64,000 bases of DNA. It comes from Xylographa opegraphella. Lineage: Eukaryota. The notes beneath the pieces are model-generated. The model was not told the origin of the DNA and searched no databases. It saw nothing but the letters and a program-made list of their open reading frames with translations. Positions within the stretch are counted from its first letter, which is position 1; every line of letters starts with the position of its first letter. Below are positions 29,043 through 40,954 of the stretch, piece by piece. A program made the position numbers and the translations under genes. The stretch covers positions 372,001 through 436,000 of the forward strand of contig JALDZX010000006.1 in NCBI GenBank assembly GCA_022813865.1. The letters run 5' to 3'.

Positions 29043-30700
29043 TTAAGTATAAACAGCAGACGAAGGCTGTAGCTCAGAAAGCACAATATTTTTCAGATAA
29101 ACAGTACATTATCACAACGGCAAAACGTCCAAACATATTTCTAGGAAGGAAGGAAGGAAGGGTTCTTCTTCTCCATATTACTAATTCGACAAACAGTAAT
29201 CTACATCTAGTTTTCATCGCCATGGTGGCGATAAGGGTAAGGAAGATCGGAGGCAATAGCCAAGGGTAATGACGTATCTAGCGTCTCGCCTACGGAGCTT
29301 CAATGGTAGCGGGTTTCCCAACTACCAACGACATTAGATTGACACGAACAAGTTGTTTCGTGGTGTAGACGTGGTGTCTCGTCAATATGGGTTATCCCGC
29401 ACTGTGTGAGCAGAGACACATCCTTCCAGAGCAGATATGTCAGGGACTTTCCCCTCGCATACGGAGGCTTCCACTGCGAAGCGTAAGCGTACCGCAGGAT
29501 CCGATCATGTGCAAGATTCGACCACAAGCAAGGGTCTTTAAAAATCATTTCTAGTACTTCATGAAACAAAAGACCATTATGGGCCACTATATCATGAGTT
29601 TCTTGGTGCATACATATTTCTGCAAGACGCGAGTGCGGCCGCCTAACCCTTTTGAGAAGAAAACCATGGCTGTTATAATAAATCTCGTTTGTGGAATCCA
29701 AGCAAGGTGGTCAGGCACCAGATGAAAAATATTTTCTCTACAAAGCAATAAAAAGGGATGGTGCCATGCATAATCTTTGTATTGACAACGAGCGTTAGCG
29801 ATCATAAGCTATCGTGAAATCGTTTTTCTTTTGGCAATGAATGAGGAATTTCCGAGCATCGAATATGTTTAAAAACTGCTGTTAACAAGAATATCTAGTC
29901 TCAGGCCGCCAATGAGACTGTCGGTGCTCCAGCATGAAAGCTCTTGTGTGGTTTTGTGAGGACTGTAGTTGGGCAAAGAAGGCATGTAGGGCATATATAC
30001 AACCGGACTCTATAAGAGAACACATACTGCAACCAACAGTCACCATCTGCACGGCTCATGGAGTGACTTCCCGCTCAACGTTCGTCAAGCTCTGGCCGTC
30101 ATATGCAGCGGAGACCGCTCTAGAAGTGAGAATCTCAATTGACGTGTCCTAGGCTACAATTGGCTCTAGACCGCTTCTCACAGGGTCTCTTTGCCGTTGA
30201 ACGCGCTGCGATCTTTCTTCACACTCACTCCAGTTACTTCTGAACCAGAGCAAACGGTTAACGATCACACATAAAGGTCTGTCTGCAGTTCTCCACTTGA
30301 CGCCGAGTAGTCTTTACTTTGCTCCTTCTGATACTCAGATTATCCAAGTGTTCTAGCACTGTCTGCCGAGCAAAACTCACGATCACGCAGAGACTTGCAA
30401 AGAACCACTGCGCCCCCAACTCCCAACTGACGCCGAATATTGCTCTCAAGCTTGCTTTTACTAGAACTTCGATTGTTGCTGGACCTCAATTCACTAAGGT
30501 ATGAAGAGGCTCTTTCCATTCTGGTAGTGTGAGCTTATCGTTGATTAAAGGTGTTGATCTGATCGTTGAAAACTCACAAGTCGCTCCAACTGGTACGAAT
30601 CCTACAGAAGTAAGTGTGTATTATCCAACTACATTGAACCTAACCAACATATCGTAGCTGAGAATATCATTCAGACGTCTGAAAGAATTACTACGCTATC

Positions 30701-31321
30701 ATGTATTCATATCCTCAGACATGTTCAATGTGCGATACGGAGACTACTCTGAAATGTTCACGATGTGGAGAAATGTGGTATTGCTCTAGGGCATGCCAGA
30801 AGGAAGATTGGAAAGTCCACAAGTTGTTGTGCTCCACATTCGCGGCCTTCGAAACCCCCCAGGAGTACAGTCATAAGAGGGCTATCCTGTTCCAGCAGGA
30901 TGCGGAGCATCCACAATTTGTATGGATCGAGACAGGCCGGACCGACGAGGGCTACGACATGGAGTTGAAGAAACTGCTGCATCTTCCAGGGGAGCAGAGC
31001 GAGACCACCGCATCGGACTTGGTCAAACTGAATAGGATTAATCTCAGTCGTCAGCGTCCTCTCCGACATAACATAACTCTCATGTGTCGTGACGACTTCT
31101 TCAAGGACGGATCTATCCCAAACAAGAGCATCATCGGATCCACGAAAGGGATGATGAAATATGATTGGCGCGGCCCGATCCTCGCTGTTGCACAGGAAGT
31201 AAACAGTATGCCTGAACCTCCGTATGATGATCTCACTCTGCACGATTTTCGGGACATCGTGGACTACTTCCTTACATACGACGGTACAAGGACGGCACCC
31301 AAACGCTGGGGTCACGCATAG
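30701..31321 (+). CDS. MYND-type zinc-finger protein (206 aa)
   Basis: CSMC-x7-CSRC-x4-YCSRACQKEDWKVHKLLC, followed by the motifs PNKSI, WRGPILA and DLTLHDFRDIVDYF. Confidence 0.88.
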   Translation: MYSYPQTCSMCDTETTLKCSRCGEMWYCSRACQKEDWKVHKLLCSTFAAFETPQEYSHKRAILFQQDAEHPQFVWIETGRTDEGYDMELKKLLHLPGEQSETTASDLVKLNRINLSRQRPLRHNITLMCRDDFFKDGSIPNKSIIGSTKGMMKYDWRGPILAVAQEVNSMPEPPYDDLTLHDFRDIVDYFLTYDGTRTAPKRWGHA

Positions 31322-32159: not shown

Positions 32160-33031
32160 TATTAGCGTATGCAAAAACTGTGCATTTCGTTGGCGCTCAA
32201 CTTCCCCCCCCCCACCCCTCAAAAATGTAATCATGCAATAATTTTAAAATCGTCTTCACGGGTTTTCCTCACTGACTATTCTTATTTAATATAATATTCT
32301 TATTATTTATATAGATTTCGCAGGCCCCGCAGCCCTCGTAGTCTTCGCTGCCCCCGTAGGCCCCGTAGTCTTGGTTGAATTCGTTGTCCCTACTGTTTTC
32401 GTAGCTTTCGTTGTAGCCCTTAGTATTCTTACAGCCCTTACTACTCCCGTAGCCTGCGAAAACTATAAAAACAGCGGGGCCAGCGAGGGCAGCGAGAAGC
32501 TAAATAAGCAGCGAGGGCAGCGAGGGCAGCGGGGGCTACGAGATCAATGGGGGCTATAGGGACTACGAGGCCCGCGAGGGCAGCGGGGGCAGCGAGGACT
32601 ACGGGGACTGCGAAGGCAGCGTAGGCAGTAAGGGCAGCGAGGGCAGCGTAGATAGCAAGGGCAGCAAGGGCAGCGGGGGCAGCGAGGGCAGCGAAGGGTA
32701 TAAAAATTACGGGAACAGCGAGAGCAGTGAGAAGCTAGAAGGGCAGCGAGGGCAACGAGGGCTATAAAAGCAGCGAGGGCAACGAGGGTTATAGAGGCAG
32801 CGGAGGCAGCGGGGGCTACGAGGGCAACGGGGGCTATAGGGGCTGCGGGGCCCGCGGGGGCTGCGGGTGCTGCGAAACCTACACGAATAATAAGAATATT
32901 ATATCAAATAAGAATAATCAGTGAGAAAAACCTGTAAAAATGATTTCAAAATGATTGTATGATTACATTTTTGAGGGGTTGGGGGGGAAGTTGAGCGCCA
33001 AGGAAATGCATGGTTATTGCATACGCTAATA
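32160..33031. mobile_element. Non-autonomous DNA transposon (foldback/MITE-like): ~175-bp terminal inverted repeats, internal 9-bp tandem arrays, flanking TA
   Basis: 32162-~32335 aligns to the reverse complement of ~32855-33029 (ttagcgtatgc...tggcgctcaacttcccc...cccctcaaaaatgtaatcat...). The interior is CAGCGAGGG-type 9-mers. TA lies at 32160-61 and 33030-31. No transposase ORF. Confidence 0.88.
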
Positions 33032-33312
33032 GCGTAGGTCGGAGACCTACTTCGATCGGTGTGCCTCACGAATCCACCTCCACTCATACGCCACCTGGCT
33101 AAACGCTCTTTAAGGAGCTCTGGTAATCCTCGTTCTCAGTTTCGCAGGCAAATTTCTTTCCTCTGATTGTTCGGCATGTTTAGTCGGTGATGTGACAATG
33201 CCATATATTTGGTTGGACCCCGGGTGTCGAAGCCATATACCACCAAACGCATGATTCGAGATCAACTATCACCTTTCAGGCATAGGAGCTTGCTGATAAC
33301 GTCTCATGTCTT

Positions 33313-35468
33313 ATGGAGAACGGAAGCCTATGTCCACGTTGTGAAGATCTCAGCCAGAAGATTGCTCGCTATCTCGAGAACGGAGGTACTCTTTTCTCCA
33401 GGCAAATGCTTGGTAGCGTTGCTGAGATACGACTTCGAACGGACTGCTCCATTTGCAGATTCATTTTGAGAGCTTACGACCGATCATGTGATCCTAACAT
33501 TGAGCTGGAGCGTCAAACCTCGCTTGAAATCCATACGAATAACCATGGGACCCTGTACATACAAGAAATACCCCAAGGTCCTCGTCAACGTGTATATCTC
33601 TTGCCCCTTGAATCATCCCCGGCTTCTGTTTCTGGCCGTCTAGTCAAACCTCTGTGTGACCCTGACCTCCTCTGTCGATGGCTACGATCTTGCCAAGACT
33701 GGCATGGGTCTAATTGCTATACGCCAGGCTGGTCAGAGCTCGTAACGCCTCTTGCCAAATTTCAAATGCGGCTGATAGATGTTAATCAACGATGTCTCGT
33801 TCCTGCACCTACTGGTTGCCGTTATGTCGCGCTGAGCTACGTTTGAAGCAGAGCCAAGATCTTCCAGACTACTCGATCCAATGTCGCTGCACTATGTAAG
33901 ATTAATGGTTTGAACGAAGATTTCAAGGATCTCCCGGCCACGATTATCGATTCGATGGATCTTGTAGCTATGATTGGAGAGAAATTTCTCTGGGTAGACT
34001 CTCTCTGTATTGTGCAGGATGACACGCAAGAGAAGCACACACAGATCGCGAATATGGATGCAGTATATGGCAATGCAGTGCTGACTATCAACGCGGCTGC
34101 TGGGCAAGATGCGAATGCTGGCTTGCCTGGCGTACATCCGTCTTCGAGAAAAGTGGACCAACTCGTCCTTGAATTCCAGTACGGTCAAAGACTGGTTGCC
34201 GCTCAACCAATCATGACCGACATTGCGGATAGTTCCTATTGGAACACACGCGCTTGGACATACCAGGAGCGTTTTCTCTCCAAGCGTTCCCTCACTTTCA
34301 CCGATAGTCATGTCTTCTTCCAATGCCAACGAGTGATATGGTGTGAAGATGTAGTGGCAGAAGAAGATAAAATCATCGACTACCACCAGATGGAAGAGTA
34401 CCTGCCCATTGATTGGTCCCCAGAGCGCAACAAGCACATGTACAAGCTGCATTATGCTTTACATGTGTACAAATCCACTAATTGGGTCGAGTATCTGAGA
34501 ACTGTGGAGGAGTACACTCCGCGCATATTGTCCTTCGACTCAGACATCCTCGCGGCATTTGCGGGAATGAGCAAAGTACTAAGCTTCATGTTCCGTAGTC
34601 GTTTTCTGTATGGACTGCCGGAGTCACTCTTTGATTGTGCACTCTTGTGGCTGCCAGCAGGAACGATTGTTCGACGCCATGCCCCCGAAACTTCCTCGAA
34701 GTCAAGTGGATTCTATTTCCCGAGTTGGTCTTGGACTGGTTGGAAAGGCAGCATCGTCTACGAAGACATCATGCCTCACCTCAAAATGCTTTGTTCTGGC
34801 TTGTGAGGAGGACTAAGCCGCTCGTCAAATGGCAGAAGCAGACCGCAGACGGGTCGCTCACTGCCTCCGTATCTAGTACTGGAGAGATAGGCCAATATCT
34901 GCTCAAGCCATTCGAGGAAAGACTTCCGGAAGGTTGGCATGTCTCCACAGGGGGAATATTCGATATCTTTATCGGGACCTACTACTATCATGACGATTCT
35001 CCTTCAAGCTTCTTCGCCATTCCCACGCCTCTGACGACAACTCTGGAAGACGCCGATGATCCCCGCTGGACGCGTATCGTCGGCAAGACCTCGTCTTCTC
35101 TGCTAAAAATCGTGCCAGCCCAGGATTCTGCGACAGAGAACCCGCAGCGATTTAACATCACAGACGAGTCTGGCCTCTGGTGCGGATGCGTGTGGCTGGA
35201 CCGCAGTTGGACTGGGCGAACTGCAGAATTGCACGAGTTCATCGTCCTCTCCGAAGGCTCCACGCCCAAGGCGGAAATCGAGCGATTCTGGTCGACGGAA
35301 GAGTGGAGTCACTTGGCAGGGGATGACGGCACAACATGGTATCAGTACTTTAACGTTCTGCTGATTGAGCATGAAGGACCAATCGCCTATAGAGCCGGGA
35401 TAGGTAAGATTGACAAGCGCCGCTGGAGTGCTTTGTCTATGACTATGAAGGAAGTCTGTCTGGCGTGA
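33313..35468 (+). pseudogene. HET (heterokaryon incompatibility) domain gene with an in-frame TGA and a frameshift
   Basis: RLIDV...YVALSYV*(33844-46)...LPATIIDSM...FLWVDSLCIVQDD...MDAVYGNA...WNTRAWTYQE...FPSWSWTGW. The reading frame changes at about 34770-34800 and continues to FNVLLIE...AYRAGIG. Confidence 0.88.
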
Positions 35469-36100
35469 CACGTATATTGGCACATTAAGGATGTATTGAA
35501 GAATCTCCCGTGCTTGCGTGATTGCTGGTCTGTAAAGTCGTGTTAGGAGCCGATAACCTGCAAATCACTAGCAGAGCTGTGACAGATGATACCATGATGT
35601 GCGAAGATACGGTGTCAGTAACGTACCGTGTGTCCAATTCACAGATGACACATATAAATGTCACTGAAATAGTTCTCTTAGACCCTTGACGAAAAGGCGC
35701 TGAAAACGTACCTACTGATTCACTCATACCCGTCCTGACCACGTCCAAGCTATGTATATAAGCGCTCATTTTCCATTCCTTTATGGGAGTCGGGCTCCAG
35801 AAGGACCACCAACAATCACTTTATCTCAAATATCACAAACCAGCAGCAAAGATCAGCAGACTGATCATCAATCCTCTGTTCAATACTTGAACACTCCAAT
35901 ACCTAGACAGTACTGTACTCCAACTCTCAAAGTTCCCACCGCCACATTCACTGCCGTTGAGTGTATCACAAGCCCCCATTACCTTAACACGACAAGCAGC
36001 AACCAACTTCTACCTAAGCAAGCCCGAAGTCACCCATACACGAGGAAGCTCCCAGGAAGGTCAACCAACCACCAGCACTCTTTCTTCCTCGGCATCGAAC

Positions 36101-36318
36101 ATGTGCACAGCAACTACCTCCAGCTTCAAAAATCGTAAACACAGGGAAGAAAAGCTCACTACTCGGTGCCCCCAAGCAGACCAGAAAGCCCTCATCTAAC
36201 AGGCTTCCAGGGTACTTGTGTATATATCAAGCTCAAGAAAGACCCTCGCCCCGGATCGTTATCCAAGTGCACAAGAGAGAACACAGAGAAGAACACAGAC
36301 CCGGCTGTCGCGAAATAA
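36101..36318 (+). pseudogene. Decayed copy of the small Cys/His-motif protein
   Basis: MCTATTSSFKNRKH...C* (R12 is CGT where a paralog has Cys). After a frameshift near 36190 it reads GTCVYIK...GSLSKC...*. Confidence 0.5.
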
Positions 36319-37167
36319 GATGTTTTGCCTCCGCCTGAGAAGGACGGCGATGTGGAGGCTGGGAAATAAGATATTGGATTACGGCATAAGAGCCCGGCAT
36401 GCTGGAAGTAGCTGGGTCTAGTCTCTCCGAGAGCGGAAGACTGTTGTACCATAAGCGCTTTCGATTCAGTTGCTGGGTATCTGGGGCGCTGATTGGGCTC
36501 ACGGTTCAGGCCGGTTCTCGATGATAAATATGATATATAGTATTAGCAGGCGTAGATAACGGCCACATAATCCACCGTTGATCAGTCACAAGACTTGATG
36601 GCTTTAGATCACGTGCTAAATAATAATCTCTGGCATGAGTCTCACAGCACGAAGAGCTGACCAGCCCGCTCCCTTTCTGCCTTCCTTCTCCCATTCAGCT
36701 TGGGAAAACCGTGATAGTGAAGCTTTGCTGATTAAGTAGGTAAATTGACACTGGCATCAAATTTTTAATCGAGCTTCTAGAAATGGAACCACACACCGTC
36801 AGGTACGGTAGGTAGACTCAATCCACCCACTAGCGAATATATTCTAGGGCTATAAAGTACCTTAGCGTACCCTCACCAATGCCTCAGCCCATGAACTCGC
36901 CTTAAGCCCTAAGGTAGTGAAGGGCCCTCTGGATTGTTCCTTCCTCACTCACCCACCTTCCATAACTGAGTCGTCGACAAACCGCAGTCAAGGAAGGAAA
37001 GACGGACCTCTGTAGACCACACAGCTCTCCAGAAGTAGAACCTCTCATCTCCAGCTACAACAGGTCAGTTCTCTTATCTATTCCAAAGTGTTACATTCCC
37101 CATGGACATACCCGATTTGTTAACGAACCCAGCTCAATACCTTACTCAGCATTCACTTAGCTTCAGC

Positions 37168-37344
37168 ATGTGCACCATCCACCAATATACGTACACTATA
37201 TGCGGCCACTCACCAGAGCCGTACCGATTTCTCTACCGCTGCAATTTCTACCCGAGATGTTTCCGAGTAATTGTTCCGATAGTTTTCGATAATATATGTC
37301 CAAGATGCATTCTGGTACAATTCATGCCAGTGAACAGACATTGA
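37168..37344 (+). CDS. Small (58 aa) Cys/His-rich putative zinc-binding protein
   Basis: MC-x9-CGH-x10-C-x5-C-x12-CPRC. Upstream are TATAAA at 36851 and a 5'UTR intron-like segment 37064-37132 (GTCAGT...TTAAC...CAG). Confidence 0.7.
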   Translation: MCTIHQYTYTICGHSPEPYRFLYRCNFYPRCFRVIVPIVFDNICPRCILVQFMPVNRH

Positions 37345-37918
37345 GGAAAGCAGTTCTGCCGGATGGAGTGGGTGATGTCTAAGCTGGGTAAGGTGGTTGG
37401 AGTGTCACATTGTGGTTTTGGACCAGAGGAGCTGAAGTAGTCGAGCTTGCAGTGGATGGAGTTTCGGTTGGTGAATTATCTTTGAGGTCTGCAAAGACAG
37501 CAAGCGGCGGCATGCACTCCTGCACAGAATTATCTTCATACTGATCCACTTTCGAGGCGTGCGCGGAAGTATCCCTATATCGGTGAATGGTGTTATTCCT
37601 CGACATGTGACTGCAATGCGAAAACGTGACTATTGCACCACCAAATCAGCTCATGCAGAGAGTTTTGTTCAATGTATAGGAATGTTATGCGTCAGCTCCT
37701 GCTCGGTCTTCCGACTAGGTTCCTTTTCGAGAGTACAATACTGAAGGCTTCTGGTGCTTTCTCTCAGCCACTCAGAGTAGATCTTCACCCAAGCACTTCA
37801 TTCTCTTACAACCACGCATCTCATCTCAATCATCCACGTGTTATTCAATATTTCTGGACCGCAGTAGTATTCTCATCCACCAACATCACCGACAAGACCC
37901 ACTGCGCAGCGCATCATC

Positions 37919-38107
37919 ATGTGTATCATGGAACAGCCCTGCTATGATTGCGGCTGCACACCGGAAGACCTGCGAGTGATCACAGCAGTCTGCAAAGCGA
38001 CAGCTACTTGCGTCAAGACTCTCACCATCCTCTTCAGAGACGGTCTCTGCCCCACGTGTACCTTAAGGCAGCTGTTCAAGAAGTGGGAGAAGGCGGGCTT
38101 TGCCTAG
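37919..38107 (+). CDS. Small (62 aa) Cys-rich putative zinc-binding protein, paralog of 37168-37344
   Basis: MC-x8-CGC-x11-C-x5-C-x12-CPTC. C2, C25, C31, C44, P45 and C47 sit at identical positions to the neighbouring ORF. Confidence 0.7.
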   Translation: MCIMEQPCYDCGCTPEDLRVITAVCKATATCVKTLTILFRDGLCPTCTLRQLFKKWEKAGFA

Positions 38108-39284
38108 AACCGAACTGGAGAGAGTGGTTGTGCATGCTTGATGTTATGACTGGCGATCATTTGGGGAACATATATACACATCGGCGAACATGCGTAGGGG
38201 GTCACAGGTTGAGTCAGTATGCAACACCTATACCGGTTCTGGGGGGATTCTCACATCTTTGTCGTGTCGATTTGTTGCCGGTTGAATCACAGTGGTCATG
38301 TTCGCGGAACCGCAAAAAAGTGTGGCTGGATTTCGAGCTGATATTCGCGACTAGAATCGTTCCAGGAAGCAAAGCCATGCGTGTACGATGTTCTGTTACA
38401 CTCCTAACGATTGCATAAGCTCCAACCTATCAAATCGAGTCATCCAAAGCTTGCTCTGATGGTCCAACACAAGTACTCAGTGGCCTACCAAGATTTTGCG
38501 AGGACCAGGATATCTTCGGCATCCCCGGCCATTTAGCCAGCGTAAATGACACTGGTGAAGAGGAGGAGAGCTTTCTGCATTTCTATTTCCATACCCGGAG
38601 GTTTAGAATCATTCATACAACAGTGTTTGATCAGATAGGACAGCATACGGATGAAAGCAATATGTGGACTGGAGGACTTTCTTCCTATGTAATGGCTTGA
38701 ATAAATTTAAAAGCATACTTCTGTCGTATGCCAGAAACACTGCAAAATCGTTATATGCTAGTGTAGCACGCTGACAACAATCATCAGGAGACATAGGCAA
38801 ACAAAAGCTTCAATATAAGCCAGACTCCCCAAGCTAACAAAGCCAGACTTTCCGTATAAGTACATCGGCCGAATAGAGGCAAGCGGGAGAAGAGTAAAGA
38901 AAAGCTTGCAAACGATTGTGGAGTTCCTGATCTCGCCCACGTTGCCGGACGCATTGAGACCTCTCGAACGTATTGCGGCATTGCTTAAATCCTGGTTGCG
39001 GAGCCCTTTATGCCATCCAGATTTGAGCAATCTTGTACTAGGTCGTTTGAGAACCATCAGAGCTGAGGATTCGGCAATCTGCAAGAACTGTATAGACTGT
39101 CACTCCTGCTGAAGACATCGTGATATGGATGTGCGTGGATGATGAGTGACCAATCAAACATGATTGTTGTGAGCAAGCTGTCTCAGCACCCGTCCTGATC
39201 CGTTATGAAGGACTTAGAAGTACATGACTGTTGATTGCGGGCCTCGACACAGGAACTTGCCATCCTTGAGTCCACAGGCATATC

Positions 39285-40037
39285 CTAGTCCATGTAGAAG
39301 TCTCCCTTCAATATGCGTTCCTGGAAATGATCAGGAGCCTTGGTGACCTTAGGTGGTTCCTTAGTAGGAGTCGCAATACTGGCAGCGCGTGTATGGTCTT
39401 GGACTGGTGCCGCGGAAGCGGCAGGAGGGCTTGTGATGGAAGAGGACCTCTGAGCACGAGATCTGAGTTGATCAGACCAATTGAACCCTTCACCTATACG
39501 TCGAAGAGAAGTATTAGACGCTTTCTTTGGAGCTTCCTCTTCAGTAACAGGACTCGAGGACAAACCTCGCCCTTTATTAGGTGGAGAAGAAGCCGAAGTT
39601 ATGGAAGGTCTACCGTTGACATTACCACTTCCTGCTCTAACATCTCTTAGTGCTCTAGCACCAAAACTCATCCGCCTGCCGAACGGTGTGGATGGAGTCT
39701 GAATAGGACCTGCGTCCCCCTCCTCGATGGCGCTTTCTTCGACGCCTGCAGAGCCAGAGCCGTTGCTAGAGATGCTTTCTTGGCGGCCTCTGAAGCTGCC
39801 AAATGGCGAAGTCTGCGTTGGGGAACCAGATAAACCTAATGTCGAGATAGACATACGGCGCCGTTGGGAAGCTTGAGCATTGGCTGCAGCTGCAGCGATG
39901 GGACCTGGGTATGGTGGAGTGCCAGCCGAAGGATTGTCACCTGCTGAGCGCCCAAAGAGCTGTGAGAGCCTCTGACCAGGTGCGAACGATGCTCGACGAG
40001 CAGTGGGTGTTGCAGGAGGGGAGTTTTCGTTAGACAT
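39285..40037 (-). CDS. Conserved-looking Ser-rich disordered protein of unknown function
   Basis: Start MSNENSPP in an accATG context, repeated RRxS kinase-type motifs, EGFNWSDQLR and C-terminal PDHFQERILKGDFYMD. Confidence 0.8.
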   Translation of the reverse strand: MSNENSPPATPTARRASFAPGQRLSQLFGRSAGDNPSAGTPPYPGPIAAAAANAQASQRRRMSISTLGLSGSPTQTSPFGSFRGRQESISSNGSGSAGVEESAIEEGDAGPIQTPSTPFGRRMSFGARALRDVRAGSGNVNGRPSITSASSPPNKGRGLSSSPVTEEEAPKKASNTSLRRIGEGFNWSDQLRSRAQRSSSITSPPAASAAPVQDHTRAASIATPTKEPPKVTKAPDHFQERILKGDFYMD

Positions 40038-40954
40038 GGTAAGATTCCGTGGCAAGATTCCGTGGCTTCGATTAACGGATAGGCGAAGTGATATTGATTG
40101 GAAGCGCACGGAATGGAGCAGACAGCAGTCTAATCGAGAGGAGGTAATCGGAGGGCCCAACTTGAAGAAGAAACCAGCGAGCAGTAGATACCACGAAACT
40201 GATCACCGTGTCGAATGCAAATATACGGAGTTTAGCGTATTTGGATAATTCCCGCGGACCGAGATTCGAAAGAACGACCGGAACCGTGGGCTTCGAGTGA
40301 CTCGAATATGATGTACGAGAGACAGAGACAACGAATCTTGGTGGGTCTTGTGGATGGAGATAGCAAGGAGGATAAGTTGTTGAGGGCGTGGTGTTGAGAG
40401 TGGGCTGATGATGCTTCTTGGAGGGACAGGTGGGATTGGACGGAACGCACTGACGCGAAGCTCGTCGCCAAGGGCGGGGAAGGATCGACAGGGATCAGGG
40501 GTTTCAAATCATATTGTCTCACCTCCACGACTGTTGGCCCTCGGCGTTTGACACGATGTGGCGCTTGAAGCACCCTTGAAGATTCATTCATTGTTGAGGG
40601 GGATGGCTGAATGCTGTTGACATGGCTTACAAGTCTTTCCAACCATTGTCGCGCGTAAGAAACGTCTTTGTCACGATGCGATTACAGCCGTTGATCTGCG
40701 CCCTTCGTGGAGCCACCTGACGAGCATTCATGACCATCTACTCGTATTCATAATTCATTGTGGCCTGCGCCTTCAACGCCAATATGCTACAGTCTAACTG
40801 CTACACCTATCGCTACGAACGCCATGTTGAAGTGCAGCAAAGACATCGCCGGCAAAACCTGGGCCAAACGTGGTCGGAGGTGCTGAAGAAGGTTCGGGGT
40901 ATCAAAGAAGAAGAAAGGCCGATCAATCAATGCAGGAGTCGGAAGAACCTCGCC

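Follow-up and report, generated by a model that had tools for sequence, protein, structure and literature searches.

A tandem pair of micro-proteins in Xylographa opegraphella belongs to a large fungal six-cysteine mini-domain family that may fold around zinc

INTRODUCTION

CxxC and CGH are motifs characteristic of metal sites. Site 2 of RING fingers carries a CGH...CPxC pair, PHD fingers present eight ligands in the order C4-H-C3, and fungal Zn2Cys6 clusters, which consist of two helices, follow the spacing CxxC-x6-C-x5-12-CxxC-x6-8-C. Metallothioneins combine a very high Cys content with a lack of aromatics, and thrombospondin type 1 (TSP1) repeats are secreted and have a Trp-rich first strand. 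Removal of Met before an N-terminal Cys is established, and N-terminal acetylation occurs on Cys N-termini. Plant PCOs oxidise N-terminal Cys, as stated in sections of PMC11668491. In Neurospora, according to the main text of PMC10684091, young genes and HET genes co-cluster, mostly without coordinated expression.

We analysed a stretch of 64,000 nt of fungal DNA, from Xylographa opegraphella (assembly GCA_022813865.1, contig JALDZX010000006.1, positions 372,001–436,000, forward strand), hereafter the window, to which all coordinates without a locus name refer. An initial annotation had singled out two short ORFs with a common Cys scaffold as candidate zinc-binding micro-proteins. No description of such a Cys/His microprotein family was found in a literature search covering few subscription papers and no motif search. 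The part of PMC10282164 that was searched yielded nothing on this family, and the words 'cysteine' and 'zinc' do not occur in the main text of PMC10684091.

RESULTS

Two tandem ORFs with a common Cys scaffold

The pair consists of:

37168-37344, + strand: ORF1 coding sequence, 58 aa, family member
37919-38107, + strand: ORF2 coding sequence, 62 aa, tandem paralogue of ORF1

As originally reported, the two ORFs are co-oriented, both start with MC and both carry C25, C31 and C44-P45-x-C47 at the same positions. The candidate ligands are C2, C12, H14, C25, C31, C44 and C47 in ORF1 and C2, C8, C11, C13, C25, C31, C44 and C47 in ORF2, Cys8 of the latter lying beyond the scaffold common to both. The motifs CGHSPE and CGCTPE, said to occupy equivalent positions, are both present but shifted by one residue (12–17 in ORF1, 11–16 in ORF2). 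The view that the two proteins have almost no other similarity is overstated, since 17 residues (30%) are identical, among them Q, Y, G, P, E, R, D, L and Q. At the DNA level identity is about 34%; all ligands are kept, with identical spacing.

The ORFs are separated by a spacer of 575 bp. When ORF1 was used as query against the 24.7-Mb genome, ORF2 was the sole other match, and the reverse search gave the same result (E 0.024 and 0.036). In a comparison of 77 sequences each was the best match of the other, with a score of 74 ahead of 51 and 50 for the runners-up, and no other own-genome pair was as similar. ORF1 and ORF2 are the product of a tandem duplication. Sequencing run X1, which may be the source of this DNA, is identical to the window over 33000-40500, with zero differences; X2 and X3 cover neither ORF. 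Homologue searches based on a word index, with ORF1 and ORF2 as queries, gave no candidate, and neither sequence was present in the public protein collection, as judged by exact-sequence lookup.

Comparison with described domains

In agreement with the earlier statement that no named domain could be assigned, no Pfam or NCBIfam family matched more than one of the 65 aligned family members (described below), and the best PDB sequence matches had E values of 0.15-0.25. The likeness to a C3HC4 RING lies in the CGH knuckle and in a later CPxC followed by a helix, with two inferred metal sites. CGH is found in 51/65 members (partly imposed by the search pattern) and CxxC in 53/57. However, the N-terminal C-x2-C of RING is absent, the first two Cys being 8-9 residues apart in all 57 full scaffolds, and so is its H-x2-3-C-x2-C core, with 7-11 residues from H to the next Cys in most members. 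Unlike in RING, the first Cys of the family is fixed at residue 2. None of the 65 members matched a RING Pfam model and the fold searches listed no RING entry, although such an absence does not exclude a cross-brace fold. PHD fingers (MLL5, TAF3) gave profile matches over CG...C...C...CxxC that were not significant (E 0.25-1.4); in contrast to their ligand order, the family has six Cys and an optional H/C in third place.

Like the Zn2Cys6 cluster, the family is fungal and multicopy with six invariant Cys, but its spacing is 8, 1, 7-11, 3-21, 12-17 and 2, its predicted structure contains strands, and many members are stand-alone proteins of 46-70 aa. Metallothioneins are likewise tiny, intracellular, Cys-bearing and often unannotated, whereas the family has about 10% Cys, 9% aromatics, fixed spacing and predicted secondary structure. 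The TSP1 repeat (profile E 0.15) differs in that the family has neither a signal-like segment nor a conserved Trp. The lack of a signal peptide, seen at first in the pair, extends to the family, where only 4/65 members reach KD 2.0-2.3 over 10 residues. A Met-Cys N-terminus is shared with the substrates of the Met-Cys N-degron. Finally, the lineage-specific Neurospora clusters beside HET genes resemble our case in their young duplicated genes and variable regions, as far as the main text of PMC10684091 describes them, but here a single homologous family is involved and some members are old syntenic orthologues.

The family in the X. opegraphella genome

The scaffold is about M-C-x8-C-G-[H/C]-x7-10-C-x3-21-C-x12-16-C-x2-C. 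The bare pattern ATGTGY-N24-TGYGG had 60 matches in the genome against 77 for a reversed control. We translated 54 of the 60, the other six being skipped with a stop visible in the match, and found the scaffold in 22 of the 60 (21 full copies and one broken). With ORF1 and two copies with other spacing, this makes 24 intact-looking members. Of the 409 matches that lack the Gly, the first 56 contained three more scaffold carriers (among the first 60 such matches, 14 with a visible stop were left untranslated), so that the genome holds at least 27 intact-looking copies plus the broken one. Scaling the three carriers up to all 409 matches would add some 20 copies, and we estimate the family at about 45-50 copies, intron-split forms not counted. 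With some 30-50 members in 25 Mb, it is comparable in size to the HET-domain family, which has 31 matches here.

M1, C2, C11, C31 and C44 are invariant in the 24 own-genome members, and G12, C25 and C47 are kept in at least 90%. Most of these members are 56-133 aa long, and three head frames of 196-487 aa; with the metagenome members described below, the frames headed by a family domain range from 196 to 574 aa, and long charged or polyQ tails occur. The broken copy (L051:5006, minus strand; G000:C209:144905) has an early stop and a frame change and may be either a pseudogene or an assembly error. Exact-sequence lookup of 19 own members, a method by which different gene models could hide some, found two in the public protein collection, both source-labelled Xylographa opegraphella. 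The other 17 were absent, as anticipated for ORFs so short.

Members in other genomes and metagenomes

A pattern search for further members, proposed with the first description of the pair, was productive beyond this genome, with dozens more on fungal-type metagenome contigs. The pattern MC-x8-CGH...CPxC was present in at least 116 metagenome stretches, 87 of them in frame and open among the 116 matches listed. Among 46 distinct sequences, drawn from the first 80 metagenome loci listed, 41 carried at least two internal Cys outside the pattern (33 exactly two), against a background of 31% in random open frames. A family profile gave at least 18 bits for 29 of the 36 remaining metagenome loci listed, which lie outside its training set and include some near-duplicates. 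Genes next to members in the 27 metagenome loci scanned are of eukaryote or fungal type and include ones with HET, UstYa, DUF3425, MMM1-like, Myb and eIF2B-epsilon domains. At one locus (L079:1691-1755, + strand) a 59-nt intron lies between the ATG and the Cys codon of a family gene, and ATG-anchored searches miss it.

A homologue search with the 24-member alignment returned three matches out of 15 candidates, all of one subfamily. HMMER with a two-sequence profile against 1.84 billion representatives gave seven matches, all long or repetitive Cys-bearing proteins; the one inspected, P0005, is an unrelated repeat. The sequences of P0008 and P0012 coincide exactly with members L047 and L064, and records P0008-P0012, which are unnamed or mis-named, belong to the same family or are look-alikes. 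The source of P0008 (L047:3583-3876) names this family member VID21, which is probably a wrong annotation prompted by the polyQ tail of the protein. In the ESM Atlas, ORF1 and ORF2 separately retrieved the same two Ascomycota hypothetical clusters (0.88-0.89), which we regard as a lead only.

In a prokaryote control of 596 Gb the same pattern gave 64 matches, 14 open in frame, and most of the open ones are presumably other zinc proteins (PriA-, rubredoxin- and DnaJ-like). One prokaryote match was strong (L286, 40.9 bits); since the gene beside it shares 46-51% identity with the one that flanks fungal-type loci, this contig is likely mis-binned fungal DNA. Another, L274, reached 18 bits and has no internal Cys. 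On contig L303 (G001:C376), from a genome labelled Ferrimicrobium, a family member sits beside a gene of fungal type, which we take to be Mdm12-like; this contig is probably mis-binned fungal DNA. On a bacterial-type contig (L302 / L304, G002:C321:9812-9850), with Lon, integrase and coupling-protein genes nearby, the 17-bit look-alike L284 could be either a chance match or a distant analogue. A viral control gave 13 pattern matches, four of them open, the best at 11.5 bits.

Start context, selection and duplication

Members were picked on their cysteines and not on start context, MC and CGH being built into the search patterns. An A at -3 was found in 23/24 members, ORF1 and ORF2 included, as opposed to 7/32 non-member pattern matches (P 1.4e-8); the start context of ORF2 is CATCATC. 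ORF1 and ORF2, both in the training set, scored 28.6-30.5 bits with the family profile, against a maximum of 11.8-13.2 for reversed DNA. Seven non-family loci were excluded from the pN/pS, spacing and strand-register analyses, and alignment A3 omits L062:4986, L090 and L115. A large, mostly unannotated fungal family is real.

Over 13 pairs of close homologues, pN/pS was 0.27, with pN<pS in 11/13, a ratio biased down since the pairs were chosen at at least 55% identity and motif codons were included. Close homologues are thus under purifying selection, and this single test does not support the suggestion that these are diversifying recognition proteins. The wide divergence is between old paralogues. 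In one subfamily the neighbouring RRM gene is kept at 58-61% identity (L047, L077, L088), and in another a neighbour with an SMP/MMM1 hit is kept at 46-59% (L073, L086, L106, L303). This conservation of neighbour genes across distant contigs indicates that some members are old orthologues.

Two copies were present at 4/21 own member loci, and 53 other regions (525 kb) contained no copy at all. Of the roughly 51 metagenome loci that bear a member and have flanks, six contain two or three copies. Co-oriented neighbours ranked 1-17 of 76 in similarity, whereas the sole convergent pair ranked 51 and 66. The family normally grows by tandem duplication.

Predicted fold and metal sites

AlphaFold models of ORF1 (65 sequences; pLDDT 76.4, pTM 0.51) and ORF2 (24 sequences; pLDDT 81.0, pTM 0.54) agree on two paired strands, spanning roughly residues 2-9 and 33-40, and on a helix that starts at the CxxC, with a low-confidence middle segment (about residues 11-30). 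The predictions suggest a shared strand-strand-helix core. Foldseek searches with the predicted structures gave nothing significant (best E 4.1 in PDB, 1.4 among viral entries), nor did a VIA-align fold search (best Z 2.3 and 2.6); these null results show neither a new nor a different fold.

Spacing between ligands is tight except from the third to the fourth Cys (3-21 residues). Seven conserved ligands had been proposed. The six Cys are indeed near-invariant, but the seventh (H/C) is present in only 13/23 own members. A nearby Cys or His is found in 7/10 own members without the seventh ligand compared with 19/55 that keep it (P 0.075). All 65 aligned members start with MC, on which they were selected; in the 7/7 partner genes found without the ATG pattern Cys is also residue 2, in one of them reached across an intron between the ATG and the Cys codon. 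Both the ligand pattern and the predicted fold agree with zinc being bound inside the cell at one or two sites.

How the ligands would be grouped is less clear. One modest signal from the strand-register analysis, a charge anti-correlation (z -3.4, permutation P 0.012, n=52), sets the first Cys opposite the third in a hairpin; the other site would then consist of CGH and CPxC. However, the AlphaFold models pair the first strand with the third, and the hairpin with the second is not clearly seen, so that the grouping is tentative. Cys2 would fall in a three-thiolate site under either grouping. With six Cys and an optional His/Cys the side chains number seven, whereas two tetrahedral zinc sites would need eight. 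One site could be formed by four side chains (second Cys, H/C, fifth and sixth Cys) and the other by the thiolates of the first, third and fourth Cys, with either the alpha-amine of Cys2 or an exchangeable ligand in fourth place. That Met is removed before an N-terminal Cys and that Cys is always residue 2 led us to infer this last step. N-terminal acetylation would block such an amine ligand. No earlier case of zinc being bound by the amine of an N-terminal Cys was found in the literature, with few subscription papers covered. The family is probably a new variant of zinc finger, with a probably new zinc-binding architecture in which Cys2 is obligatory.

DISCUSSION

Taken together, these results suggest that ORF1 and ORF2 arose by tandem duplication within a large fungal family, so far undescribed, of N-terminal six-Cys mini-domains, likely zinc-folded intracellular binding or regulatory modules, a reading to which we give a probability of about 0.55. 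Zinc would stand in for the hydrophobic core of the mini-domain, so that loops and tails could vary freely and each paralogue could acquire its own binding surface; a zinc-held core with free loops and tails might then serve as a partner-binding or regulatory module. Copies would be born by local duplication, a few becoming fixed as conserved orthologues while others decay. A bolder proposal, which we consider possible yet doubtful, is that dozens of copies per genome in filamentous fungi share an unrecognised two-zinc fold whose second site is closed by the amine, labile and regulatable, the variable loops acting as plug-in modules. If true, this amine-closed two-zinc repertoire would be a hidden regulatory layer, missed by annotation because the genes have fewer than 100 codons.

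Other functions can be envisaged for small, Cys-rich, multicopy proteins without a signal peptide. Metallothionein-like buffers that store or detoxify metal (Zn, Cu, Cd) would share these traits, but the medians of the 65 members are only about 10% Cys and 9% aromatics, ligand spacing is fixed with strand-like segments, some members head the long frames described above, and 0/65 match a metallothionein Pfam model; we therefore think this function unlikely. We are hardly more inclined towards a redox or metal-status switch, in which a labile three-thiolate site (Fe-S, Cu or zinc) would release its metal and thereby change folding or stability, and which includes an oxygen sensor with a plant-type Met-Cys N-degron. 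The invariant Met-Cys start and the one metal site short of a side-chain ligand speak for it. On the other hand, six fixed Cys point to structural metal sites, and an exon-wise search of this possibly incomplete genome, in which introns or gaps could hide a gene, gave no PCO_ADO (PF07847) match; a plant-style Met-Cys oxygen sensor is not favoured. Six invariant Cys, an even count, could also form three disulfides in unconventionally secreted peptides or effectors, and the non-significant TSP1 match would agree with this. Such a role is very improbable given the lack of a hydrophobic signal in nearly all members, the presence of CxxC and CGH, motifs of the metal-site type, and the long charged or polyQ tails of some members.

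The position of the pair raises the question of whether family proteins are partners of HET allorecognition genes under arms-race diversification. HET genes adjoin the window pair, another own locus (L035) and a metagenome locus (L095), that is 2/21 own member loci, where about 1.3% would be expected from the 31 HET matches (post hoc, P ~0.03), and 1/27 metagenome loci. Nevertheless, no member was found in 27 other HET regions (265 kb), which rules out an obligate link, the HET gene of the window is broken, and close homologues are under purifying selection, making a partnership quite improbable; co-residence with HET genes in variable regions, as in Neurospora, would fit better. A more serious doubt, though still a minority view on our part, is that the family is real while one or both copies, more probably ORF1, are silent or decaying. 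Because its codon use is uninformative (LLR -0.4; GC3 0.49) and aromatics reach 17% of its residues, ORF1 may be a decaying copy. The broken copy L051, the broken HET gene and foldback repeat nearby and the failure to find a close homologue of either ORF point the same way. Against this, all ligands and their exact spacing persist at about 34% DNA identity, both ORFs have A at -3, codons in ORF2 are used as in genes (LLR 5.2, higher than in 95% of intergenic frames), and a RIP-like signature was looked for in both ORFs and not found. As for chance ORFs with coincident cysteines, for which one could invoke the bare pattern being no commoner than in the reversed control, they are refuted at the family level by the reciprocal matches 575 bp apart, the profile scores and the start-context enrichment, and deserve practically no weight.

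With no Pfam model and most copies missing from protein sets, defining the family is an immediate fix for fungal annotation, and the conserved syntenic orthologues offer knock-out handles in model fungi for family function.

Upstream elements and neighbourhood of the pair

The following features lie upstream of the pair:

33286-35468, + strand: HET-domain gene, broken, upstream of ORF1/ORF2
36101..36199, + strand: 32-codon ORF with an MC start and A at -3, putative decayed third copy, unsupported
36851..36856, + strand: TATAAA, putative TATA box of ORF1, from sequence only
36900..36914, no strand assigned: CCTTA/TAAGG palindrome CCTTAAGCCCTAAGG, one of 4 such loose motifs in the window
37064..37132, + strand: predicted 5'UTR intron of ORF1, 69 nt, from splice-like words in the sequence

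The TATAAA reported ahead of ORF1 is present at 36851. The palindrome, also correctly located at 36900, is unremarkable: the same loose motif occurs four times in the window, with nothing to link it to a function. The leader intron had been called clean; its splice-like words are in place (donor GTCAGT at 37064, branch-like TTAAC at 37120, CAG at 37130-37132), but alternative acceptors lie further downstream and the intron remains a prediction. Its removal would matter, since an in-frame ATG at 37102, within the predicted intron, would give an 80-aa ORF if unspliced.

Further upstream (35756-36310, + strand), a TATATAA and a long A/C-rich leader precede the MC-starting 32-codon ORF at 36101, with a Cys-bearing remnant in another frame nearby. 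The family profile did not score this ORF at E<=10 and lends no support to its being a third copy; the region may contain either the remains of such a copy or a distinct micro-gene that is spliced. The HET gene is interrupted by a TGA in frame (33844-33846) and changes frame near 34800; a relative about 83% alike is present in run X3. A similar layout is seen at L095:1310-5572, where two members and a truncated third adjoin a HET gene. A foldback or MITE-like repeat (32160-33031) has inverted arms of 208 nt and internal subunits of 9 nt, and its end is common to several other contigs of run X1. A MYND-finger gene (30683-31321, + strand; PF01753, E 1e-11) adjoins the repeat and the HET gene.
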